In this document: positions 3,861 to 29,758 of the stretch, in pieces | Position numbering within the stretch: the stretch's first letter is position 1 | How the letters are laid out: each line of letters begins with the position of its first letter | Made by a program: the position numbers and the translations under genes | From: a bacterium | GTDB lineage: Bacteria > Zhuqueibacterota > Zhuqueibacteria > Residuimicrobiales > Krinioviventaceae | NCBI GenBank assembly: GCA_963675755.2 | Contig: CAXXMD010000003.1 | Coordinates: 2,624,001 to 2,688,000 of the forward strand | DNA length: 64,000 nt | Reading direction: 5' to 3' | The notes under the pieces: model-generated | The model's database searches: none | Seen by the model: the letters and a program-made list of their open reading frames with translations, nothing else | Told to the model about the DNA's origin: nothing

Positions 3861-3948
3861 TATGCGCTATTTACAAAGATAGAATTTGAATCGGTTTGCA
3901 CGAATAGTGATGTTTTACAGGTTTTTTTAGGTTTTGAGAATCTAGATA

Positions 3949-4027
3949 AAACGCAGAGTCGCAGAGTTCGCAGAGGTAGTGGATGTGTTTTATAATGGGG
4001 GTGATTTATGATGCATGAGAATGAAAT
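3949..4027 (+). repeat. Left end L1 of CGCAGAG repeat element (3 x cgcagag, TATAAT box, RBS, start of GxxExxY)
   Basis: aacgcagagtcgcagagttcgcagagg...tataatggggg; aligns with 5198-5275 and is inverted relative to 4388-4427. Confidence 0.85.
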
Positions 4028-4381
4028 ATCAGGTAAAATTATTGGAGTGAAGTACATCGGGTTTTAGGTCCTGGTTTGATAGAATCGGTATATGAAAATG
4101 CGCTTTGTCATGAATTGCATTTGTTGGATATTGATTTTAAACGGCAGCAAAATATCCCAATCCCTTACAAAGGAGTAAATTGGGGCTCTGATTTAAGATT
4201 AGACCTGTTGGTTGCTGATAAGGTAATTGTTGAATTAAAGGCAAAGGAAAAATTATCCCCTATTGACAAACCCAAGCTTTTGACATATCTGAGATTATGT
4301 GACAAAAAGCTTGGCCTTTTGATTAATTTTCATGTAAATAGGTTAAGTGATGGTGTGTCACGGGTTGTAAATGGTTTATAA
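4011..4381 (+). pseudogene. GxxExxY protein (PD-(D/E)XK-like nuclease fold), frameshifted near 4047
   Basis: MHENEISGKIIG from 4011, then a frame change to EVHRVLGPGLIESVYE...RLDLLVADKVIVELKA...GLLINF; only 2 nt lie between IIG and EVH where about 3 codons are expected. Confidence 0.85.
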
Positions 4382-6631: not shown

Positions 6632-8041
6632 TTAGCTATTTTTTAATGCGAGTTGTTTTAACAGTCCTCGATTGATTTTGAGGCCATTGCCGGTCTGTTC
6701 AGGCCAGGGGTAAAATCGTACCGGGTGTTTGAATTTTTCCAGGTCCTGCTCCAGGTGTAGACGAATGATTGTCTCTTTAACCGGATTATCGCTGTATTGC
6801 AGAAACGCAACCGGGCGTTCTCCGAATTCATCATCCGGGATGGGCACAACAATGCACTGCGTTATCCCCTTGATCTGCTCGATGCATCTTTCAATCTCTT
6901 CCGGTTGGATGTTTTCTCCGCCGGAAATAAACATATTGTCCAACCGTCCCGTTACATTCAGGCAGCCCTTTTCATCCAGATACCCACGGTCCCCGGTGTG
7001 AAACCAGCCATCCTGATCTACTGCGCCGAGTATTCCGTGTTGATCAAAATATCCCTTGAACAGCGTTTTTCCTTTAACGCGTATTTCTCCCTGATCTGAA
7101 AATGACAGTCCCCGGTGGGGCAGCAGTCTGCCGCTGGTGGACAATTCTTTTGCGTCAGCACAGGATTGGGTTGTGGTGATTTGAGACGCCATTTCTGTTG
7201 ATCCGTAACTGGTGTGGATTGGAAGGTTGTATGCTATTGCCTGATCAATCAGCGATGCGGGAATTGCGCTTCCGCCTAACAGGATCGCTTTTAAAGATTG
7301 CAAGGCCGAGACAGCATCGGGATTGGTCAACATGCGCGCCAACTGGGTGCTGACCAGTGAAATGTGTGTAATGCTTTTGTTTTTGATCAGGGATTCCAAA
7401 GGCTCATCACTGTTTGGTAATACTACAGCCGCTCCGGCAAGAAAGCACCGGAAAAGAGGCGCGATTCCACCCACATGATACATGGGCAGGGAGAGCAGCC
7501 AGCGGTCTCCCTGCTGGACCGGGATGTTTGCATTGGAGCCTAATGCGTTATACAAATGGTTCGACAGTGTGTGCATTACCGCTTTGGGATTACCCGTACT
7601 GCCGGATGTAAATATCAATGTGGCGGGGAAATCTGTTTGCAATTTTATGGGATTAGTTGGATCTGCCGCGTTATTCAATGATGTGATGTTGAATGTATGG
7701 ATGCCTGGAAAATGTGCATCATTATTATCGGTAATCAGGGATTTGCATCCAACCTGCTGCATGCGTTGTTGTACTGTAGGCAATGGCAGCCGGGTGCTGA
7801 GGGGCATCATGATTATGCCGGCCATCCATCCACCCAGAAGCGTGGTGATGTATTGAACAGAGGGTTCCGCAAGAATGGCTGCAATAGCGCCTCGATTCAT
7901 GCTTTTTTTGAACATGAATGCCGTGTTGGTGCTTTGTGCAAACAATTGTGTATAGGTCAAAGCATCTTTATTGAAAATGACCGCAAGGCGTTCTGCATGC
8001 CTGGTGGTTTCCGGAAAGGCTATATAGTCCGGGATGTTCAC
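6632..8041 (-). CDS. menE: o-succinylbenzoate-CoA ligase
   Basis: FTSGSTGNPKAV, HVGG, YGSTEMASQ and GRLDNMFISGGENIQPEEIE motifs; adjacent to menC. Confidence 0.9.
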   Translation of the reverse strand: MNIPDYIAFPETTRHAERLAVIFNKDALTYTQLFAQSTNTAFMFKKSMNRGAIAAILAEPSVQYITTLLGGWMAGIIMMPLSTRLPLPTVQQRMQQVGCKSLITDNNDAHFPGIHTFNITSLNNAADPTNPIKLQTDFPATLIFTSGSTGNPKAVMHTLSNHLYNALGSNANIPVQQGDRWLLSLPMYHVGGIAPLFRCFLAGAAVVLPNSDEPLESLIKNKSITHISLVSTQLARMLTNPDAVSALQSLKAILLGGSAIPASLIDQAIAYNLPIHTSYGSTEMASQITTTQSCADAKELSTSGRLLPHRGLSFSDQGEIRVKGKTLFKGYFDQHGILGAVDQDGWFHTGDRGYLDEKGCLNVTGRLDNMFISGGENIQPEEIERCIEQIKGITQCIVVPIPDDEFGERPVAFLQYSDNPVKETIIRLHLEQDLEKFKHPVRFYPWPEQTGNGLKINRGLLKQLALKNS

Positions 8042-21519: not shown

Positions 21520-21522
21520 TGA

Positions 21523-22215
21523 CTAGAAATTTACCCCAAAAACATGCACCAGTGTAAGATAAATGCCAACCAGTATAAAAATTGTTCCGGTTACAAGGCG
21601 TCCCCATTTTTCAATTATAGTGATGTTGTTATACGCTTTGGATATGTATTGTGTACCCAGGGATATGATTATAGCAAACGCCAGCACCGGCAAGCCTGTT
21701 GCAATACCATAGACCATAGGAAGCCAAACCCCTGAACCCATTTTGACGGCAATAGGGAGCAGACTGCCAAAAAACAAAGCGGCAGATACAGGACAAAAAG
21801 AGAGCGCGAAAAGAATACCCAGAAAAAACGGTGCCCATAATCCCCAACTCCCGATCTTTGCCTGCAATTTCATACTGGTACCGCGAGAAACAAGCCGGAT
21901 GTTTAATAGCTCGAGCAATACCATACCCACCAAAATCAGCAGGGGCCCCAGTGCCATGTTGATATATTTCTGCATAAAATGCGAGAGCCCCGGTGCGTTC
22001 AACAGGCTGGAAACCAGGATGATACCCAGCCACATATAAGCCAGGGTTCTTCCAGCTGTATATAACAATCCGGTTATCAGTACGCGTTTGGGTTTATCCG
22101 CCTGCTTGCCGATAAACGAGATGGCCGCAATATTGGTTGCCATTGGGCATGGGCTAATGGATGTGAGAATGCCCAGCCAGAAAGCTGTGCCCAGCGAAAT
22201 AAAGAGTTCTGTCAT
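21523..22215 (-). CDS. ArsG-family / CcdA-like thiol-redox membrane protein (copy 1)
   Basis: LTSISPCPMATNIAA and FALSFCPVSAALFFG. Confidence 0.8.
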   Translation of the reverse strand: MTELFISLGTAFWLGILTSISPCPMATNIAAISFIGKQADKPKRVLITGLLYTAGRTLAYMWLGIILVSSLLNAPGLSHFMQKYINMALGPLLILVGMVLLELLNIRLVSRGTSMKLQAKIGSWGLWAPFFLGILFALSFCPVSAALFFGSLLPIAVKMGSGVWLPMVYGIATGLPVLAFAIIISLGTQYISKAYNNITIIEKWGRLVTGTIFILVGIYLTLVHVFGVNF

Positions 22216-22670
22216 TAGATGCTTGCCAGTAAACCGCGGGTTTCAGTCTGGATATAGTCCACATATTTTTCTTTTTCGGGCACCAGCTCCCATACCCGTT
22301 CCAGGTTTTTCCAGCTTTTCTGCTCACCTTTGACATATTGTACGACAACGACTGATTTTGTGGTAAGCTGATAATCCTGGATATAGTGTTCATTGCCCGG
22401 AACATCGGTATTGACGGTGCGGAATTCGATTTTGCCCTTGTTCATTTCATTTGCAAAACCGGTTTCAATGGCTTCTTTGGCATAGGCTTCTATGGTTTTG
22501 CAGGTGTTACAGCGCATATTGCCATGGAAATAATAAGCAACCACTTTGGTTTGATTGTCTGTTGCAGTCACATTGGTTGCTGATTTACTGTTCTGGCTCC
22601 ATACCATATACACGATGCTGACAGCTACAAAGGCGAGCAATACAATGCTTAGCAGTTTTTTGGGTTTCAT
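22215..22670 (-). CDS. ArsF-family thioredoxin-fold protein (copy 1)
   Basis: N-terminal anchor; YYFHGNMRCNTC. Confidence 0.78.
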   Translation of the reverse strand: MKPKKLLSIVLLAFVAVSIVYMVWSQNSKSATNVTATDNQTKVVAYYFHGNMRCNTCKTIEAYAKEAIETGFANEMNKGKIEFRTVNTDVPGNEHYIQDYQLTTKSVVVVQYVKGEQKSWKNLERVWELVPEKEKYVDYIQTETRGLLASI

Positions 22671-22684
22671 CTTTTTACCTCTTG

Positions 22685-23008
22685 TCAGGAGTTTAAAATT
22701 TGCATTTGTTCTTCAATACGGGATTTGATCACAATGTCCACACAATCCATAAAACGCAGGACGCAGGGTACTTTTAAGCTATAGAATACATTTTGGCCGC
22801 GTTTTTCATCCTGTACGATGCCTGCGTTTTTCAATACGGAAAGGTGTTTGGAAATGGTTGAGAAATCCGCATCGATTGTTTTCACAAATTCGCAAACGCA
22901 GCATTCTTTAGCGGCCAGTTGTTCTACAATATACAGACGGGTTGGGTGTGCCAGGGCTTTTAAAACATTTGCTTTTGCGACATAACTGGATTTATTTTGA
23001 TCATCCAT
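22685..23008 (-). CDS. arsR: ArsR/SmtB metalloregulator
   Basis: KALAHPTRL, CCVC, ISKHLSVLK. Confidence 0.85.
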   Translation of the reverse strand: MDDQNKSSYVAKANVLKALAHPTRLYIVEQLAAKECCVCEFVKTIDADFSTISKHLSVLKNAGIVQDEKRGQNVFYSLKVPCVLRFMDCVDIVIKSRIEEQMQILNS

Positions 23009-23028
23009 ATATTACCTTATTACTTGGA

Positions 23029-23065
23029 TATTTGGCAAATTAACCAAATAATAGTTATTTGTCAA
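23029..23065 (-). promoter_or_regulatory. Sigma70 promoter with overlapping ArsR-type operator
   Basis: Minus-strand TTGACA (23060-65), 17 bp, TAATTT; inverted repeat TATTTGG-N8-CCAAATA (23029-23050). Confidence 0.7.
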
Positions 23066-23104
23066 TATATAATTTCATCATGTGAGAGTGCATGGAAACC
23101 GGAT

Positions 23105-23800
23105 TCAGAGCAGGGTTATATGAAAAATATGCACCAACGCATTGAACAGGCCAACCAAAATGAAAATAATTCCGGTAATTTGTCTGGCTTTGCGCTCAAA
23201 TAGAGTCAGTTTGTTGAAAAGAATACCCATTTTGTGGATACCTGTGGCAAGCACAATAGAGATGAGCAGTACCGGTAATCCTGTTGCAATGCCATATAAC
23301 GCGGGCAGAATAATGGGGGATTGGTGCTGAACCGCCAGGGGGACCAGACTACCGAAAAACAAGGCAGCGGGTACGGCACAAAACGACAATGCAAAGAGAA
23401 TCCCCAGCAGAAACGCACCCAACAGGGACAATGATGACAGTTTTTTACCGGTCTTTTCGCTGATTGTGAATCCCTGAAATGGCAGGGAGAGCAGATCAAG
23501 CAGCACCATGCCCACGAGTATCAGAACCGGACCAATGAGGATGTTGATGTTTTTTTGCAACAACTGGGATATTAGCGGTGCGGAAAGAAGGCTCTTGACC
23601 AGCATAAAACCCAGCACCGTATAGGCTGCTGTTCTGCCGGCAGTGTACAAGAGTCCGCCCCACAGGGTTTGTTTGGGCGCTGCAAGATTTTTGCTGATAA
23701 AGGAAATAGCTGCAATGGTGTTTGCCATGGGACAGGGACTGAGAGTAGTAAGAATGCCCAGCCAGAAAGCTGTAACTGCTGCGAGTAAATATGCGGTCAT
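23105..23800 (-). CDS. ArsG-family / CcdA-like membrane protein (copy 2)
   Basis: LTTLSPCPMANTIAA, FALSFCAVPAALFFG; paralog of 21523..22215. Confidence 0.78.
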   Translation of the reverse strand: MTAYLLAAVTAFWLGILTTLSPCPMANTIAAISFISKNLAAPKQTLWGGLLYTAGRTAAYTVLGFMLVKSLLSAPLISQLLQKNINILIGPVLILVGMVLLDLLSLPFQGFTISEKTGKKLSSLSLLGAFLLGILFALSFCAVPAALFFGSLVPLAVQHQSPIILPALYGIATGLPVLLISIVLATGIHKMGILFNKLTLFERKARQITGIIFILVGLFNALVHIFHITLL

Positions 23801-24273
23801 GGCAGCTCTCCATCCATGAATTGCCTGATTTGTTCAATCATAAAGGTTTTGAATGCTTGCGGGTCTTTGTACAGATACCATACATCATCAAGCACCTGCC
23901 AGGTTACGAGGTTACCGTCACTATATTTTGCCAGCACAACCGGACGGGTAGAGAGGTTGAAATCGGTTACGTAATGCTCGTTTGCGGATATGTCGAGATT
24001 GATTTTGAAAAACCGGATTGTGTTGCTGTTCAGTTCATCCCTGAATTGCGTTTGCAGTGTCTCGCGGGTGAGGGATTCGATGCTGTTGCAAGGATCGCAG
24101 CGCATGTAGCCGTGAAAGAAAATGACCGCTATACCGTTGTAACTTTCAGGCAAATCAGTCCGGGCGGACGAGTCCGGCCCCTCTGGCATAAAGATGACAA
24201 CCACCAGACAGGCAATAACAAACAGCAGTAATATGATTTTAATAACGAGTTTCATGGATACCGGTTTATTCAT
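23797..24273 (-). CDS. ArsF-family thioredoxin-fold protein (copy 2)
   Basis: FFHGYMRCDPC; ATGA overlap with the downstream arsG-like gene. Confidence 0.75.
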   Translation of the reverse strand: MNKPVSMKLVIKIILLLFVIACLVVVIFMPEGPDSSARTDLPESYNGIAVIFFHGYMRCDPCNSIESLTRETLQTQFRDELNSNTIRFFKINLDISANEHYVTDFNLSTRPVVLAKYSDGNLVTWQVLDDVWYLYKDPQAFKTFMIEQIRQFMDGELP

Positions 24274-24361
24274 TCATTCATATCTATTATAAATAATCCA
24301 TTGTGGGAATGCAAGGGAAAAGAAGGGGTGTGGTATGGGTTCTGTCTCTTGATAAGGGATT

Positions 24362-24562
24362 TTATTTGATCCCATAATCTTTTTTTACATCATGTATGGA
24401 AACTGTGGGTGCATCAGCTTCTTTTTGTTTGGCTTCTCTTAATAGACGCAGATCCTCATAGTCTTCCAATATTTCCTGTAACATTTTATATTCATTATAT
24501 GGCAAAACAGCAAACTCTATTTTGCCGTTTTTTTCTAAAAAATTTGGATGTAATTCAATCAT
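24362..24562 (-). CDS. Type II antitoxin-like protein
   Basis: KNGK.EFAVLPYNEY...LEDYEDL; immediately downstream of a RelE-like toxin. Confidence 0.7.
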   Translation of the reverse strand: MIELHPNFLEKNGKIEFAVLPYNEYKMLQEILEDYEDLRLLREAKQKEADAPTVSIHDVKKDYGIK

Positions 24563-24571
24563 GATATTCTC

Positions 24572-24820
24572 TTATTTATATGCTTGTTTTCTATGTCTAA
24601 TACGATAAATATATATAATATCTTTTTCAATTTCAAATAATACTCTGTAATTACCCACTCGAAGTCGATATTCCGGAGTAAAATCCGTCAGTCTCTTGAC
24701 ATCTCCATGCAATTCGTCACATAAACCTTCAATCTTTTTAAAAATTTTTTCAAGTTCTGTTTGGGGTATTCTTTTGCAATCTTTTACAGCTTGAGGTTTA
24801 AATTCGATAGAATATTTCAT
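24572..24820 (-). CDS. RelE/ParE family toxin
   Basis: YSIEF...VKRL...YRLRVGNYRVLF...IRHRK.AY. Confidence 0.88.
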   Translation of the reverse strand: MKYSIEFKPQAVKDCKRIPQTELEKIFKKIEGLCDELHGDVKRLTDFTPEYRLRVGNYRVLFEIEKDIIYIYRIRHRKQAYK

Positions 24821-24900
24821 GTTTTACATTATTTTAAATGTTATTTGTTATTTTTTGGATTTTGTTAATGTATAATAATTATGTAATCCCATTGACAAAT

Positions 24901-25007
24901 AATTAATTAAAATTTCTTAAATACATCCAAGATTTTTCATTACGAACCCTCTATTCTTTGCAGAGAATCCTGTTATCTTTGAATTTTATAAATCATCATT
25001 CAGATAG
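24901..25007 (-). repeat. Direct repeat unit U1
   Basis: Aligns end to end with 26508-26615 (aattaat...caagatttttc...tgcag..aatcct...tgaat..tataaatcat.attcaga.ag). Confidence 0.8.
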
Positions 25008-25077
25008 TTTTAGTAAACAAGATAAAATCGAGTTTGCTGGGTAACTTTTAGATTGGCTTAGTTAAAAGTTACTAGAT

Positions 25078-25323
25078 TTAGCCTTTTGTCATATCTCTTT
25101 TTCCTAAAAGCAACCCTGCAACACTAATATCTTCGTCCAACTCTTCCCAATGTATGCCTGTACCATTTCCACTAAGCACATAATTTTGCCTTTGTTCTGG
25201 GTTTGCATTTAATAGACGTGGGAAATATTCCAGAGGTACAGACAATTGTCTGCCGTCAGTTAGACTTATCCACATATTATATTCATCAAACCATACTTTG
25301 GTGGCAGATGCTTCAATTACCAA
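25078..25323 (-). CDS. DUF2442 domain protein
   Basis: LTDGRQLSVPLEYFPRL..A.PEQR...GIHWEELDEDISV. Confidence 0.85.
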   Translation of the reverse strand: MVIEASATKVWFDEYNMWISLTDGRQLSVPLEYFPRLLNANPEQRQNYVLSGNGTGIHWEELDEDISVAGLLLGKRDMTKG

Positions 25324-25408
25324 GTACTTGTGCCTTTTATTTTTGATGCATTATAATCCATTATTTGAATGAAAAAAAACAGATATTCACATTATTGCAA
25401 GGACAAGA

Positions 25409-25831
25409 TCATGTTACTTTACTTTTTAAATGAGTTTGTGAAACTTGTAACCCCATAGATAAATAATTAAATACAATTCCTGCCAGTAATATAAAATATG
25501 CAAATATTGTCATCCTTATAATTGTAAACAATAGGGAGAATACTGGAAGGATTGCATCTTTATTATCAAAGTTGTTTGTTTGAATACTATCACACAAGTA
25601 TTTTGTTCTCCAAAACAATCGGATAAAAATAAAAACATGTATCAAAATTTTGCTGATTTTTCTGTAATTCATTTTCTTATTCTGGGATTTTCTGAATATT
25701 TTTATACAGTGAACAAAAAATGCTATACAGAGAATGATCAGCGAAGCGGACAATAAGAAAATATCCACATTGAGGATTTCCTGTGTATTGTCCGGAGGCC
25801 AGGTAAATAGCATTTTTATGATTGCGATCAT
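25409..25831 (-). CDS. Hypothetical membrane protein
   Basis: 140 aa, about three hydrophobic segments, AT-rich. Confidence 0.45.
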   Translation of the reverse strand: MIAIIKMLFTWPPDNTQEILNVDIFLLSASLIILCIAFFVHCIKIFRKSQNKKMNYRKISKILIHVFIFIRLFWRTKYLCDSIQTNNFDNKDAILPVFSLLFTIIRMTIFAYFILLAGIVFNYLSMGLQVSQTHLKSKVT

Positions 25832-25893
25832 TTAATCTTGTATTCGTTATAGGATTTTTTAATTGTGTTTTGTTGATTTTATTTCTGGATATC

Positions 25894-26021
25894 CCTTGTG
25901 TTTTCCCCACTTTTTATAATTAATATAAATTCCTTATAACATGCAAGATTTTTCTCTGTGGCTATTGCGACCTCTGCGTTATCTAGTTTCAACCAGATGG
26001 AAAGGATAGCATCCTTGAATT
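25894..26021 (-). repeat. Direct repeat unit U2 with a recognisable CGCAGAG left end
   Basis: ccttg..tttt.cccac...atgcaagatttttct shared with U3; tgcgacctctgcgttatctag matches the reverse complement of 3942-3963. Confidence 0.8.
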
Positions 26022-26160
26022 CAATTAATAATATATTAGAAAGTAATGGCCAATAAAATACAACCTGGTTGGAAGAGATGAACGGGACAAACGTCCCTGT
26101 AAAAATTTAGTCCGGCATCCACCGGTTGGCGGATTGCTGGGCAATCAATGGTATATAGAA

Positions 26161-26502
26161 TTATAAAAATTGATATAGGTATTCTACAATCGAATAAATT
26201 CCAAAAAAAACAAGTATTTTATACGTGTGTCTTATTCTATAAACCTTTGCATCATAAAATCGATCAATTTTAATGAGATGTTCTTTTTTAATAAAATCCG
26301 TTTTATTCATACTTTTTTGATATCTAAAAAATAAAAATCCAAAAAAAACAAAAAAAATCCCAATCTCTAAATGTTTTGTGTCACCAAGCATTATATTTCC
26401 ATAAAGAATTTTATTAAAAGGAAACGATAATTGTTCAATAATATTTGTGCTTTAAAATATTTTCACTTTTGAAATATTTTTATTTCCTTGTTTTACCCAC
26501 AT
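26161..26502 (-). pseudogene. Small membrane ORF, possibly interrupted by an in-frame TAA
   Basis: ATG at 26502 is in frame with the 76 aa ORF 26161..26391, with one stop near 26452; two hydrophobic segments. Confidence 0.3.
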
Positions 26503-26615
26503 TTTTCAATTAATACAATTTCCTTGTAATATGCAAGATTTTTCTTTGCGTTCCCTTTGTATGCATTGCAGTTAATCCTATCATCCTTGAATCCTATAAA
26601 TCATAATTCAGACAG
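26486..26615 (-). repeat. Direct repeat unit U3
   Basis: Matches both U1 and U2. Confidence 0.8.
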
Positions 26616-26637
26616 GGGGGATAGAAAAAAAGGATTA

Positions 26638-27117
26638 TCAATCCTGTTGGAACCGTTGGTCGGCCTGGCCTTTTTGGATGCGTTTGGAATCGACCTGGTC
26701 GAGCCAGCCGTTTCGTTCGGTGGGGTATACGTCGAATTGTGGGACATAGGGTTTAATGTCCAAAAGGGGGGTGCCGTCCAGTATATCCACGTCGGATACA
26801 TGCAGTACCAGTCCGTCAATACGGTCCAGTTTGACGCAGGAAATACCAATGGGATTCGGGCGACTGGGCGCGCGGGTGGCAAATACGCCGTGCGGTGCAT
26901 TATCCATATAAGGGACCACTTGCATCTGCACCGGCTTGGATTTGTGACACCAGAAAATTAGCCAGATACGCTCAAATCCGTCAAGGTCCTGCAATGCGTC
27001 AGCATATTTTTCATCAATTTGCACAATACCGCTGACATTACTTGAGGCGGGTTGAATAGGCGCTCCTTGCGAGCTTTTCAAGCTGGTTTTGATGATTCCG
27101 ATTTGTTCTAGCTGCAT
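26638..27117 (-). CDS. tsaA: tRNA m6t6A37 methyltransferase TrmO/TsaA
   Basis: GVFATRAPSRPNPIG, DILDGTPLLDIKPY. Confidence 0.9.
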   Translation of the reverse strand: MQLEQIGIIKTSLKSSQGAPIQPASSNVSGIVQIDEKYADALQDLDGFERIWLIFWCHKSKPVQMQVVPYMDNAPHGVFATRAPSRPNPIGISCVKLDRIDGLVLHVSDVDILDGTPLLDIKPYVPQFDVYPTERNGWLDQVDSKRIQKGQADQRFQQD

Positions 27118-27126
27118 GACGATCCT

Positions 27127-27160
27127 TAAAAAAAAAGCCCCGAACCGATTGTCCGGGGCT
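27127..27160 (-). terminator. Rho-independent terminator of the Gfo-DUF1080 operon
   Basis: agccccg...cggggct stem with an A-run on the plus strand (T-run on minus). Confidence 0.8.
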
Positions 27161-27175
27161 GTATGTAGAGATTCG

Positions 27176-28219
27176 TTATTTAACGATTGGGGTTAAAACA
27201 ATATTGCGGTACGAGACTTTGCCGTGGTCGCCCTGCAGGTAAATGGGACCGGGGACAAACTCGTTGGGTGTCATGGCACCACCGGTGCATCCGTAAACCG
27301 GAGCATTATCGATTATCTTGGTTCCGTTCAAGAGCACTGTCAGGTGGCGGTCACACAGGGTAATGTCAAAAGTCTGCCATTCGCCGGCTGGTTTTTCAGC
27401 AGCCACGGATGGCGTAATGCGACTATAGAGTCCACCCATATTGTGAGAATCCAGGTCTTTACCATAGCTGTCAACAACCTGTACTTCGTAAATACCACGC
27501 AGATAAACACCACTGTTACTGTGCGCGGGCACATTAACCTCGAGTTTCAAATTAAAGTCTTCAAATTCTGCTTCGGTACGCAGGTTTCCGTAACGGATAT
27601 GGGGTTCGCCTTCTTTTTGAACCGGATCGTTTACCAGTGTTCCATCTACAACTTTCCATCCACTGGTCTTTTCTTCTTCCATGAGTTTCCAACCTGAAAG
27701 ATCTTTGCCATTAAACAGGGTAACCGGTTCACCGAATTTCAATGCGCTGAGTTTTGGAGCTTTACCGGGAGCAGGATTACGTTTACCGGTAAACTCGACG
27801 ATGTTGGCTCCAAATCCATTTCTGGAAGATTCGTACATGCGTCCAATGATTTCATCATTACCATTCAGTTTCAGTTCAATACGGTCAATGAGTTTTTGGC
27901 GTACAGTAACATTGCCGTCTTTGTCTTTTTGACGATCTGCATCTCTGGTTCGCCAAACGATACACATATCGTCCATGATTACCGGTTTTTCATCACGTTT
28001 TACCACGCTGCCGCCATACCACAACAGATCGGCTACAGGGTATTCATTACCATCCATGTCGGTTTCAATATGCAAATCTAACCAGCCGGCACCGCCCGGC
28101 AGATAAAGTGCCCATTGTCCAAAGAATTGATTGGTAGATTCCTGTTTGCATCCTGCGGATAAAGAGATGATCAGGGTTACAAGTACCGCAGAGATTGCGT
28201 AAGTCCAGATTTTCTTCAT
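27176..28219 (-). CDS. DUF1080 domain lipoprotein
   Basis: SAGC lipobox; LFNGKDLSGW, NSGVYLRG, GPIYLQGDH. Confidence 0.85.
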   Translation of the reverse strand: MKKIWTYAISAVLVTLIISLSAGCKQESTNQFFGQWALYLPGGAGWLDLHIETDMDGNEYPVADLLWYGGSVVKRDEKPVIMDDMCIVWRTRDADRQKDKDGNVTVRQKLIDRIELKLNGNDEIIGRMYESSRNGFGANIVEFTGKRNPAPGKAPKLSALKFGEPVTLFNGKDLSGWKLMEEEKTSGWKVVDGTLVNDPVQKEGEPHIRYGNLRTEAEFEDFNLKLEVNVPAHSNSGVYLRGIYEVQVVDSYGKDLDSHNMGGLYSRITPSVAAEKPAGEWQTFDITLCDRHLTVLLNGTKIIDNAPVYGCTGGAMTPNEFVPGPIYLQGDHGKVSYRNIVLTPIVK

Positions 28220-28258
28220 GTTTTACTCCGAATTAAGAATTTATGATTAATACAATTG

Positions 28259-29617
28259 TTACAAGCTCCAGCCTTCCCGATAGGTTTTGTGCAGATATGC
28301 ATTTGCTTCGGGCAGGTTTGAGAATTGCTGTGTAATAGGATCCCATTTCAAGACCTGACGATCCAGCTTTTCGCGCAGATCCATTTGCAGGGCAATGTTA
28401 CCCATCAAGACAACCTCGGTAAGAGGACCAGCCCAATCAAAATTGGAACCGGCGGGTTCTCCACCTTTTAGTGCGTTTATCCATTCCAAATGATGGCCGG
28501 GTGAGCGGGGCAGATATTTTTCAGGGGGTACATATGCATTGCGCAGAGATTCCGGCAGAATCAGATTGTTGAGGATCTTGCCTTTTTCGCCCACATAGAG
28601 GATGCCATTGTCACCCATTTGCAGACCTTCTGCCAGTTCTTCAATTCTATCGGGACGCAGACCGCCGTCGTACCATTTCAGGGTAAGGGGTGGTAAATCA
28701 TCACGAGCAGGGAACTGATATGTTACTATCGATCCTGAGGGATATGTTTCTTTATTTACAAGTGTGGAAACGGCTTGAACGCTTTCCGGGTAGCCCAGTT
28801 TGAGGGCACGGAACGGGGCATCCAGACTGTGGCAGGCAATATCGCCTATTGCGCCGGTACCAAAATCCCACCAGCCGCGCCATTGGTGCGGGTGATACGC
28901 GGGATGATAGGGGCGCATGGGAGCGGGGCCAATCCACAAGTCCCAGTTGATACTATCGGGAACAGCCGGTGTATCTGTGGGGCGCTCAACGCCCTGGGGC
29001 CAGTATGTATCGGTTAATCCTTTGTTGGGGCGGTCGGTCCAGACATGAAGTTCAGTGACTTTACCGATAACGCCATCCCATATAATTTCCTGAATACGTC
29101 GGGTTTCTTCGCTTGCTTGTCCGTGGTTACCCATCTGAGTCGCTACTTTATATTGGCGAGCCGCACGTGCCAATGCACGAGCTTCATATACAGTATGAGT
29201 GAGGGGCTTTTCCGTAAAAACACCTTTACCGCGTCTGATAACTTCCATTGAAGTTATTGCATGGTTGTGATCGGGAGTTGCAACAATAACTCCGTCAATT
29301 TCAGGGTGTTTGTCCAGCATGACACGATAATCCTGATATACTTTGGCATTGGGGTATCTTTCGGATTGCTCTTTAGTCCTTGCAAGGTCAACATCGCAAA
29401 GCCCAACAATGTTGGCATGTTCTTCAACTTTTTTTAAATCATGGAATCCCTGGCCGCCAACACCTATACCTGCGATATTGGGTTTGTCGCTTGGGGATGG
29501 CTGGTCAGTTCCACCCAGTACATGACTGGGTACAATGGTAAATGCGGAAACAATAGCGCTTTTGGCTAAAAAATCACGGCGGGTCAATCTGGTAATGTCT
29601 GAATCCGGATTGCTCAT
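28259..29617 (-). CDS. Gfo/Idh/MocA oxidoreductase with Tat signal
   Basis: TRRDFL; GVGGQG, ATPDHNH, EKPL, WRGWWDFGTGAIGD. Confidence 0.9.
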   Translation of the reverse strand: MSNPDSDITRLTRRDFLAKSAIVSAFTIVPSHVLGGTDQPSPSDKPNIAGIGVGGQGFHDLKKVEEHANIVGLCDVDLARTKEQSERYPNAKVYQDYRVMLDKHPEIDGVIVATPDHNHAITSMEVIRRGKGVFTEKPLTHTVYEARALARAARQYKVATQMGNHGQASEETRRIQEIIWDGVIGKVTELHVWTDRPNKGLTDTYWPQGVERPTDTPAVPDSINWDLWIGPAPMRPYHPAYHPHQWRGWWDFGTGAIGDIACHSLDAPFRALKLGYPESVQAVSTLVNKETYPSGSIVTYQFPARDDLPPLTLKWYDGGLRPDRIEELAEGLQMGDNGILYVGEKGKILNNLILPESLRNAYVPPEKYLPRSPGHHLEWINALKGGEPAGSNFDWAGPLTEVVLMGNIALQMDLREKLDRQVLKWDPITQQFSNLPEANAYLHKTYREGWSL

Positions 29618-29758
29618 AACATCACTCCCTTGATTAATTTATAATGAAAGTACATGTGGACAGCAGATGCATGTATATAAAATACAGGTATAAAACATAA
29701 ATATCCACTATTTTATTTTAATTTTTTCAGGAATAATAGGATATTTAAGATGGAAAGA

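Follow-up and report, generated by a model that had tools for sequence, protein, structure and literature searches.

Repeat-headed accessory cassettes in a variable slot of a Krinioviventaceae genome and their relation to the ends of GxxExxY (PDDEXK_3) elements

Introduction

Integrons and integrase-less attC clusters (CALIN) are arrays of co-oriented small accessory cassettes, which often encode toxin-antitoxin pairs and are separated by related repeats of ~100 bp. The REP, BIME and REPIN sequences that are linked to RAYT are short dispersed extragenic repeats, found as singlets or as inverted doublets of ~100 nt, and the pdif modules of Acinetobacter plasmids are bounded by 28-bp XerC/XerD sites in alternating orientation and move from one replicon to another. 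Here we describe an AT-rich islet in a 64,000-nt stretch of DNA, hereafter the window, of a Krinioviventaceae bacterium (GCA_963675755.2, contig CAXXMD010000003.1, positions 2,624,001 to 2,688,000). Three related repeat units of this islet, U1, U2 and U3, head accessory genes of the minus strand and carry versions of a 42-nt AGGATT-rich sequence (the 42-mer). The islet is well described as a set of repeat-headed accessory units in a variable slot, whose 42-mer is the solo end of a widespread family of selfish elements; the enzyme and the mechanism that would exchange its cassettes are what we infer. The array belongs with the repeat-bounded cassette arrays, and there is a minority chance that it represents a new mechanism of cassette capture.

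The locus shares with integrons and CALIN a cargo that varies between close relatives and a junction at the repeat nearest to the conserved flank; unlike them, it shows no IntI, non-hairpin repeats without R''/R' boxes and a promoter-like leader for each cassette, and its repeat originates in the inverted repeat at the ends of a PD-(D/E)XK gene element. These GxxExxY elements, found at 3.9-4.4 kb of the window and at loci L015-L094 of other genomes, show the same order of repeat, promoter-like leader and gene, and at L015-L094 their terminal repeat is the 42-mer itself; however, the array has no PDDEXK_3 gene, no inverted partner, direct copies and an unrelated cargo. As REP and REPIN sequences, the 42-mer is dispersed, extragenic, lineage-restricted within the order, often located 3' of genes, and present as singlets or ~100-nt doublets. 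Nevertheless, a single 42-mer is not a hairpin, no Y1_Tnp gene is flanked by it on both sides and, in contrast to lineage-specific REPs, the same 25-mer occurs across phyla. The array resembles pdif modules in having discrete accessory modules, often toxin-antitoxin, bounded by short sites, although no 11-6-11 palindrome is visible by eye in the 42-mer. Finally, other 42-mer arrays separate RHS toxin/immunity cassettes which are exchanged between arrays, as in the orphan rhs cassette arrays, while the window array is without RHS sequence and, therefore, exchange there cannot use homology to a main rhs gene.

Results

Similarity and anatomy of the repeat units

A preliminary description of this DNA had proposed three direct repeats in the islet and listed strings shared among them, and both the units and the strings were recovered by repeat search and MAFFT alignment. 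BLAST against the whole 6.48-Mb genome showed 75% identity over 109 nt between U1 and U3 (E = 7e-13) and 85% identity over 60 nt between U2 and U3 (E = 3e-12). The local alignment scores of the unit pairs were 51, 42, and 26, with z values of 21.4, 18.1, and 8.4, respectively, in relation to 1000 dinucleotide shuffles per pair (mean score ~11, maximum 19-22), and ten other 141-nt pieces of the islet scored only 8-13 against U3. The similarity, on whose significance against shuffled sequences the proposed array had been made to depend, is therefore significant.

Read on the minus strand, each unit starts with a 42-nt block rich in AGGATT, continues with a decayed CGCAGAG-like triple and a leader of ~70 nt, and is followed by the cargo, and this order, already outlined in the preliminary description, was reproduced by the alignments. 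Among five aligned leaders, the TTG(C/G/T)AT and TATTAAT-like boxes are invariant and the spacer is variable; the cargo starts 85-120 nt downstream of the boxes. The earlier idea that the repeat carries its own promoter was borne out as far as conserved promoter-like boxes in each unit are concerned, and not by a generic sigma-70 scan, which omitted these boxes.

U1 (24880-25007, minus strand) has its 42-mer at 24966-25007, with eight mismatches to the consensus (nhmmer E = 6e-7), and the remainder of the unit, 24880-24965, comprises the decayed CGCAGAG-like triple and the leader, in which a TTGGAT box and a TTAATTAAT tract are found. U2 (25894-26043, minus strand) shows a leader at 25899-25958, a fragment of the 42-mer at 26007-26043 (nhmmer E = 0.09) and, between them, a CGCAGAG fragment at 25966-25986. 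This fragment had been likened to L1, a 22-mer at 3942-3963 of the window; allowing up to three edits, L1 matches in the 6.48 Mb, besides its own position, only U2 (25966-25986, minus strand) and a single site that looks like chance. U3 (26486-26615, minus strand) has the best preserved 42-mer (26574-26615, one mismatch to the consensus, nhmmer E = 5e-16), and its leader at 26489-26573 contains TTGCAT and TATTAAT boxes. In addition, a partial fourth unit, reduced to the leader boxes, which are separated by an extra 9 nt, is found at ~25425-25535 of the minus strand, where it overlaps the 3' end of ORF140 upstream of the DUF2442 gene (24882-24917 against 25446-25481, 83% identity, BLAST E = 0.001).

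No inverted partner of the 42-mer was found in the islet by nhmmer with the family profile, and an Rfam scan of 23500-27500 gave only a chance snoU85 match (E = 0.09). From this arrangement, the islet is predicted to contain three minus-strand transcription units, or four with the decayed one: ORF76; ORF140, perhaps with the DUF2442 gene; and parE-relB.

The slot in a sister genome

The genome of the window (G000; 98% complete, 3 contigs) was compared with one same-genus genome (G001). The two are syntenic, at ~92% identity, for window positions 21520-24585 to the left of the slot and 26505-29736 to its right, and TrmO of G001 shows 96% protein identity. The intervening segment measures 1919 bp in the window and contains parE, U1, the DUF2442 gene, ORF140, U2, and ORF76; in G001 it measures 2329 bp and has a single ORF of 717 aa, a defence gene for a full-length PifA-like KAP NTPase (PADLOC 8e-121; Pfam KAP_NTPase 2e-49).

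On the right side, conservation extends over the tsaA side and the 42-mer (89% over 200 nt, with one substitution in the 42-mer by eye), while the U3 leader is 59% identical to the G001 leader, which is lower than its identity to the leaders of U2 (70.5%) or U1 (65%). Because the 42-mer is conserved and the leader is not, the right junction is located at the inner (AGGATT) end of the tsaA-proximal 42-mer; and because the G001 leader is more diverged than the paralogous leaders despite its conserved flank, the leader travels with the cargo. A comparison of relatives had been put forward as the way to see cassettes gained or lost at repeat boundaries, and in this genome the cargo does differ and the right junction does lie at the repeat.

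On the left side, the 200 nt up to the homology breakpoint are 98% identical between G000 and G001. G001 keeps the antitoxin gene as an orphan (L013 8346-8546) and the last 13 nt of parE, with no toxin gene (L013 8346-8626), and this orphan antitoxin is the remnant of the cargo replacement. No excision joints or gaps were found in 22500-28500 in the contigs of three runs of one study (in X3, piecemeal), which is no evidence either way.

The 42-mer family in the genome and the genus

In BLAST searches of the genome with the units, the right 42 nt of U3 were the only part with further copies elsewhere. The 42-mer has the pattern TGTCTGAATTA..TAGGATT..GGATG.TAGGATT, with three AGGAT units 8 nt apart. 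Copies were counted by blastn-short and fuzzy pattern scans; nhmmer from a single 60-nt query gave only four. The 41-nt consensus, at up to 10 substitutions, has 34 copies in G000. Its 25-nt core, at up to two mismatches, has 28 copies in G000 and 21 in G001, with none in a reversed-pattern control and none in 29 other genomes of the family or order.

Eight of the 34 G000 copies form inverted pairs, gene-less palindromes of ~100-110 nt, which are short elements with terminal inverted repeats as in MITEs, whereas the three units of the array are solo. A co-directional ORF precedes 20 of the 26 solo copies, with its stop codon at 120 nt or less in 13 cases, and follows 18 of them; these counts are non-independent because tandem paralogues are present. 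Several 42-mer copies abut terminator-like hairpins followed by T-runs, and inter-cassette spacers elsewhere accumulate several repeat flavours. No target-site duplication was evident by eye in the flanks inspected of 42-mer elements. An exact 42-mer was also found in a 9.8-kb contig (depth 72) of another, more abundant organism of the same sample and, therefore, the repeat is common to members of the community.

Direct 42-mer arrays with a spacing of 1.5-2.4 kb are found in G000 (C3:637377-641963 and C2:1962318-1968165) and in G001 (L109 and L117), where they separate cassettes for RHS C-terminal toxins and immunity-like proteins. The spacers of the RHS arrays also hold a CGTGACGGAGAT palindrome and a CACGGAT triple.

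Synteny breaks at the inner end of the repeat

All sixteen G001 loci that contain the 26 copies of the 42-mer were aligned to G000 with megablast, and a break was defined as the end of an alignment of at least 300 nt and at least 84% identity. Eight of the 26 copies show an alignment end at 25 nt or less from the copy boundary. When copies were randomly placed in the same loci the mean was 0.90 (sd 0.94, maximum 7) and none of 5000 trials reached eight, an excess which is somewhat overstated because the control placement was not confined to intergenic DNA. The inner end accounts for seven of the eight breaks (0, 1, 2, 4, 11, 17, and 23 nt away).

One site is an empty palindrome in G000 (C2:2154663-2154775). 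The same site in G001 shows, in order, the left repeat, the loop, the right repeat, 1.6 kb of cargo, a second partial loop with the right repeat, and the shared flank; this is therefore an insertion bounded by direct copies of the repeat. Furthermore, two pieces of RHS toxin/immunity cassettes adjacent to 42-mers show 96% identity between loci of G001 and a G000 array at another locus, with ~90% in the neighboring flanks.

The 42-mer as the end of GxxExxY (PDDEXK_3) elements

A scan of one genome per prokaryotic species found exact matches of the 25-nt core in 90 stretches of other genomes, some of which belong to the sister genome's own record. According to the record titles they are mostly Bacteroidota (Chitinophagales, Saprospiraceae, Cytophagales, Bacteroidales, Sphingobacteriales, and Flavobacteriales) and Ignavibacteria, with single records titled cyanobacterium, Planctomycetaceae, Leptospirales, and Desulfobacterales. 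The 104 occurrences have an inverted partner within 160 nt in 36 cases, at 161-1500 nt in 18, and none within 1500 nt in 50. A PDDEXK_3-like ORF is located at 800 nt or less on the inner side in 31 of the 104 (same strand in 17 cases, opposite strand in 14) and on the outer side in four, and all ten of the ORFs tested match PF13366 (~1e-39). In the canonical elements, the GxxExxY start is preceded by the repeat at a distance of 16-150 nt, and the 3' end of the gene carries an inverted copy. In other genomes, therefore, small GxxExxY (PDDEXK_3) elements and their gene-less palindromes have the 42-mer as terminal inverted repeat. The relation of the units to the left end of a GxxExxY locus, which the preliminary description had proposed, holds both by this and by the CGCAGAG fragment of U2, since the CGCAGAG flavour flanks the GxxExxY gene at 3.9-4.4 kb of the window. 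With neither an inverted partner nor a nearby PDDEXK_3 gene, U1-U3 are solo element ends; the inverted-repeat arrangement of PDDEXK_3 elements is present in other genomes and not in the array.

The GxxExxY proteins with AGGATT-flavour repeats have an almost identical N-terminal sequence of 70 residues among distant taxa (L015, L040, L041, L049, L055, L058, L059, L090, L093, and L094, with the titles Chitinophagales, Cytophagales, Ignavibacteria, Prolixibacteraceae, Flavobacteriales, and Saprospiraceae), which suggests that these genes may have spread recently and horizontally among distant lineages. PDDEXK_3 appears in a part of PMC3424549 as a family of unknown function with multiple transfers between divisions. 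Literature searches found no published description of the GxxExxY flanking repeats or of the 42-mer.

G000 contains eight PDDEXK_3 genes (C3:3601735, C3:1148937, C2:2206603, C2:2202318, C3:1063300, C3:1577667, C3:1442768, and window 4043-4366). By eye, each one is flanked by its own flavour of a triple short repeat, such as CACGAAG, CACGAAT, CACGGAT, CACAGAT or CGCAGAG, and its 3' flank is an inverted copy of its own 5' flank. This covariation of the flank flavour, with the 5'/3' complementarity kept, suggests selection for pairing and not for one sequence. At the gene in the window, the frame from the ATG at ~4008 stops after ~20 codons (4008-4070) and the Pfam match covers only profile positions 11-117; this gene seems to be broken near its start.

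At several loci (L021, L022, L028, L030, L032, L060, L066-L068, L072, L082, L084, and L085), the outer end of the repeat lies within 0-1 nt of the start codon of the neighboring gene (TAATTCAGACA then ATG), and the N-termini of some of these genes may resemble type I restriction subunits. In a Saprospiraceae record (L093, ~7189-7932), a gene-less palindromic pair of the repeat forms a tandem array of six copies with a period of 144 bp beside a GxxExxY gene.

Integron and RAYT features

The preliminary description had called the array integron-like, and the searches for an integrase, an attC-like fold and attC core sites did not sustain this label. The best integron integrase match in G000 has a TIGR02249 score of 81.4 bits against a cut-off of 265, and a comparable sub-threshold match is seen in all 14 control genomes; four PF00589 tyrosine recombinases are present in G000 and none of them in the window. 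Folded as single-stranded DNA, on both strands, U1-U3 show z values of -0.26 to +0.84, with 72-160 of 200 shuffles folding at least as well as the units. The 24200-26700 region contains only one RYYYAAC/GTTRRRY pair, inside the DUF2442 ORF (25135-25265), and no such pair lies in U1-U3. Integron cassettes are promoterless and are read from a common Pc promoter; the TTGNAT/TATTAAT boxes of every unit, which the generic sigma-70 scan did not list, would argue against this feature if they act as promoters. The integron or CALIN assignment was rejected on the missing IntI, the fold, and the lack of R''/R' sites.

Membership in the REP/REPIN class with RAYT was likewise not supported, as no Y1 transposase gene is flanked by repeats on both sides: four PF01797 (Y1_Tnp) matches are found in G000, none of them between two 42-mer copies, and two of the four have a single copy at 0.8-1.3 kb. 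One RAYT-like Y1 transposase ORF of 182 aa with a weak PF01797 match (C2:1359645-1360193) is located 0.8 kb from a solo 42-mer, and the Y1_Tnp gene at C3:340749 is inside a variable segment which ends at a 42-mer.

Explanations for the variable slot

We favour the explanation that the slot is a hotspot of cassette exchange, in which promoter-bearing cassettes recombine at or next to a resident 42-mer, the solo end of an element, and we give it a probability of about one half. New cassettes, each with a leader whose -35-like TTGNAT and -10-like TATTAAT boxes are proposed to drive it, would enter or be swapped through recombination at or beside the resident repeat, either by a Campbell-type event between two copies or by break-induced repair started at the repeat, and direct repeats would be left between cassettes. 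Two candidates for the enzyme are the host's own homologous recombination, which would use the 42-nt homology, and one of the eight PD-(D/E)XK GxxExxY proteins, which would cut such ends as a nuclease.

Several observations weigh against this explanation. The left junction does not lie at a repeat: the homology breakpoint (24585) is 13 nt inside parE, in its 3' end, and at least one of the events was, therefore, an illegitimate one or a subsequent deletion. G001 shows no second 42-mer distal to its cassette, and the window cargo (24570-26580) is represented elsewhere in G001 only by a 50-nt match to the hairpin repeat. The slot comparison covers one sister genome, and metagenome scans with the tsaA-42-mer junction and with the leader core gave no matches. 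Genome-wide, 18 of the 26 G001 copies show no break at 25 nt or less (several of these are wholly inside G001-specific DNA), one break lies at the outer end (1 nt), and the random control placed copies anywhere in the loci while intergenic sites are break-enriched anyway. In G000, the AGGATT flavour is found at none of the eight PDDEXK_3 genes, none of the 27 copies scanned has a PDDEXK_3 ORF within 800 nt, and the array has no linked recombinase or nuclease. The U1-U3 leader was seen only at this locus among 119 loci, and the generic sigma-70 scan did not list the conserved boxes and gave 11 promoter-like sites against 15.2 in shuffles.

The main rival, which we consider possible and somewhat unlikely, is that the repeats are passive: a MITE- or REP-like 42-mer would settle past stop codons and terminators, U1-U3 would be a local duplication of a promoter region, and the gene content would change by ordinary indels; junctions would coincide with the 42-mer since junctions and 42-mers are both located at gene ends, or since the 42-mer is retained with the 3' end of the upstream gene. 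The position of most solo copies after a co-directional ORF (20 of 26, 13 of them close to its stop), the adjoining terminator-like hairpins and T-runs, the several flavours stacked in inter-cassette spacers, the left junction inside parE, the locus-specific leader and the lack of any enzyme all suit passive repeats. They do not account for four junctions at 0-4 nt from the same inner end, with a total count matched by 0 of 5000 random placements, or for an insertion flanked by direct copies of the repeat, and pure local duplication fails to explain a G001 leader at 59% when paralogous leaders are at 65-70% and the flanks at 89-98%. The bolder alternative, which we regard as unlikely, is that the 42-mer serves as the site of recombination for a cassette-capture system not yet described and built on GxxExxY ends, an integron analogue without tyrosine recombinase; a cut by a PD-(D/E)XK nuclease at the inner end of the repeat could start the events, and toxin-antitoxin pairs, PifA, and RHS toxin/immunity modules would be inserted, stacked and exchanged at element ends across phyla.

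A role of the 42-mer in regulation is improbable as the explanation of the slot, and could coexist with either exchange or passive repeats. The 42-mer would then be an operator or a signal in a 5' or 3' untranslated region common to accessory genes, such as an array of sites bound by a regulator or half of a stem cut by RNase III, as in rRNA intervening sequences, and its place at cassette heads would result from regulation and not from recombination. The canonical elements have the repeat upstream of the GxxExxY start and its inverted copy at the 3' end and, since both ends flank the gene, both would be transcribed and could pair; the own flavour of each GxxExxY gene with its complementarity kept (by eye) and the orientation bias of the copies relative to genes point the same way. 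However, the solo copies have no partner to pair with, the units fold like shuffles, no Rfam match was obtained, and regulation alone leaves the synteny breaks at the repeat end unexplained. A true integron or CALIN would account for co-oriented small cassettes with toxin-antitoxin cargo and direct repeats of ~110-130 bp between them; nevertheless, the integrase score (81 against 265 bits), the four tyrosine recombinases all encoded outside the window, the lack of a fold beyond shuffles, the lone RYYYAAC/GTTRRRY pair inside the DUF2442 ORF, and the promoter-like boxes of each unit leave it with a negligible chance.

If the 42-mer is a working recombination site, it would provide a second and mechanistically different route to the integron-like stacking of defence and toxin cassettes, and a first function-related handle on the large GxxExxY/PDDEXK_3 family. 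Read more cautiously, the array is explained without an integron, one 25-nt sequence is exactly common to very distant bacteria, and the 42-mer makes variable accessory slots easy to recognize in this lineage.

Cargo and flanking genes

The GC content is 0.22-0.36 across 24300-26620 and 0.45-0.53 in the flanks, which delimits the AT-rich islet between a conserved pair formed by a DsbD_2 gene and a 158-aa ORF, on the left, and trmO/tsaA, on the right. All plausible genes of the islet are on the minus strand, so that the cargo is co-oriented and AT-rich as first described, with Pfam matches for the ParE/RelE and DUF2442 proteins. The ParE/RelE-family toxin (24572-24820, minus strand, 82 aa) matches PF05016 above the cut-off (9.6e-13). 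The gene of the RelB-like antitoxin (24362-24562, minus strand, 66 aa), which is 9 nt apart, shows a weak PF18506 match (2.9e-4) under the Pfam cut-off; the adjacency is that of a type II toxin-antitoxin pair of ParE/RelE with RelB.

The DUF2442 protein (25078-25323, minus strand, 81 aa) matches PF10387 (2.7e-23). ORF140 (25409-25831, minus strand) encodes a small hydrophobic protein of a rare family with no Pfam match above the cut-off; a word-based search found no relatives, and an all-against-all HMMER search found eight distant ones (E = 3e-19 to 8e-4), mostly full-length at ~140 aa. ORF76 (26161-26391, minus strand), an unverified small ORF of 76 aa without a Pfam match, matched only itself in the relative search. 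Directly after ORF76 there is a GC-rich hairpin repeat (26084-26149), terminator-like on the minus strand, which has four further copies in the genome with 78-81% identity and one copy in G001; a generic terminator scan placed a terminator-like site at 26125-26112 of the minus strand after ORF76, and the hairpin repeat looks like a portable terminator.

On the right flank, trmO/tsaA (26638-27117, minus strand) matches PF01980 (3.9e-40), and its stop codon is 22 nt from the outer end of the U3 42-mer. The left neighbor had been labelled arsF, which was not confirmed: the 158-aa ORF (23797-24273, minus strand) is without a Pfam match and the gene next to it (23105-23800) encodes a DsbD_2 protein according to Pfam, which also identified an ArsR regulator in the left flank. 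Finally, 21523-22670 and 23105-24273 are two tandem paralogous pairs of a DsbD_2-type membrane protein gene and a gene for a ~150-aa protein, with 65-70% DNA identity to each other and the ArsR regulator in between.

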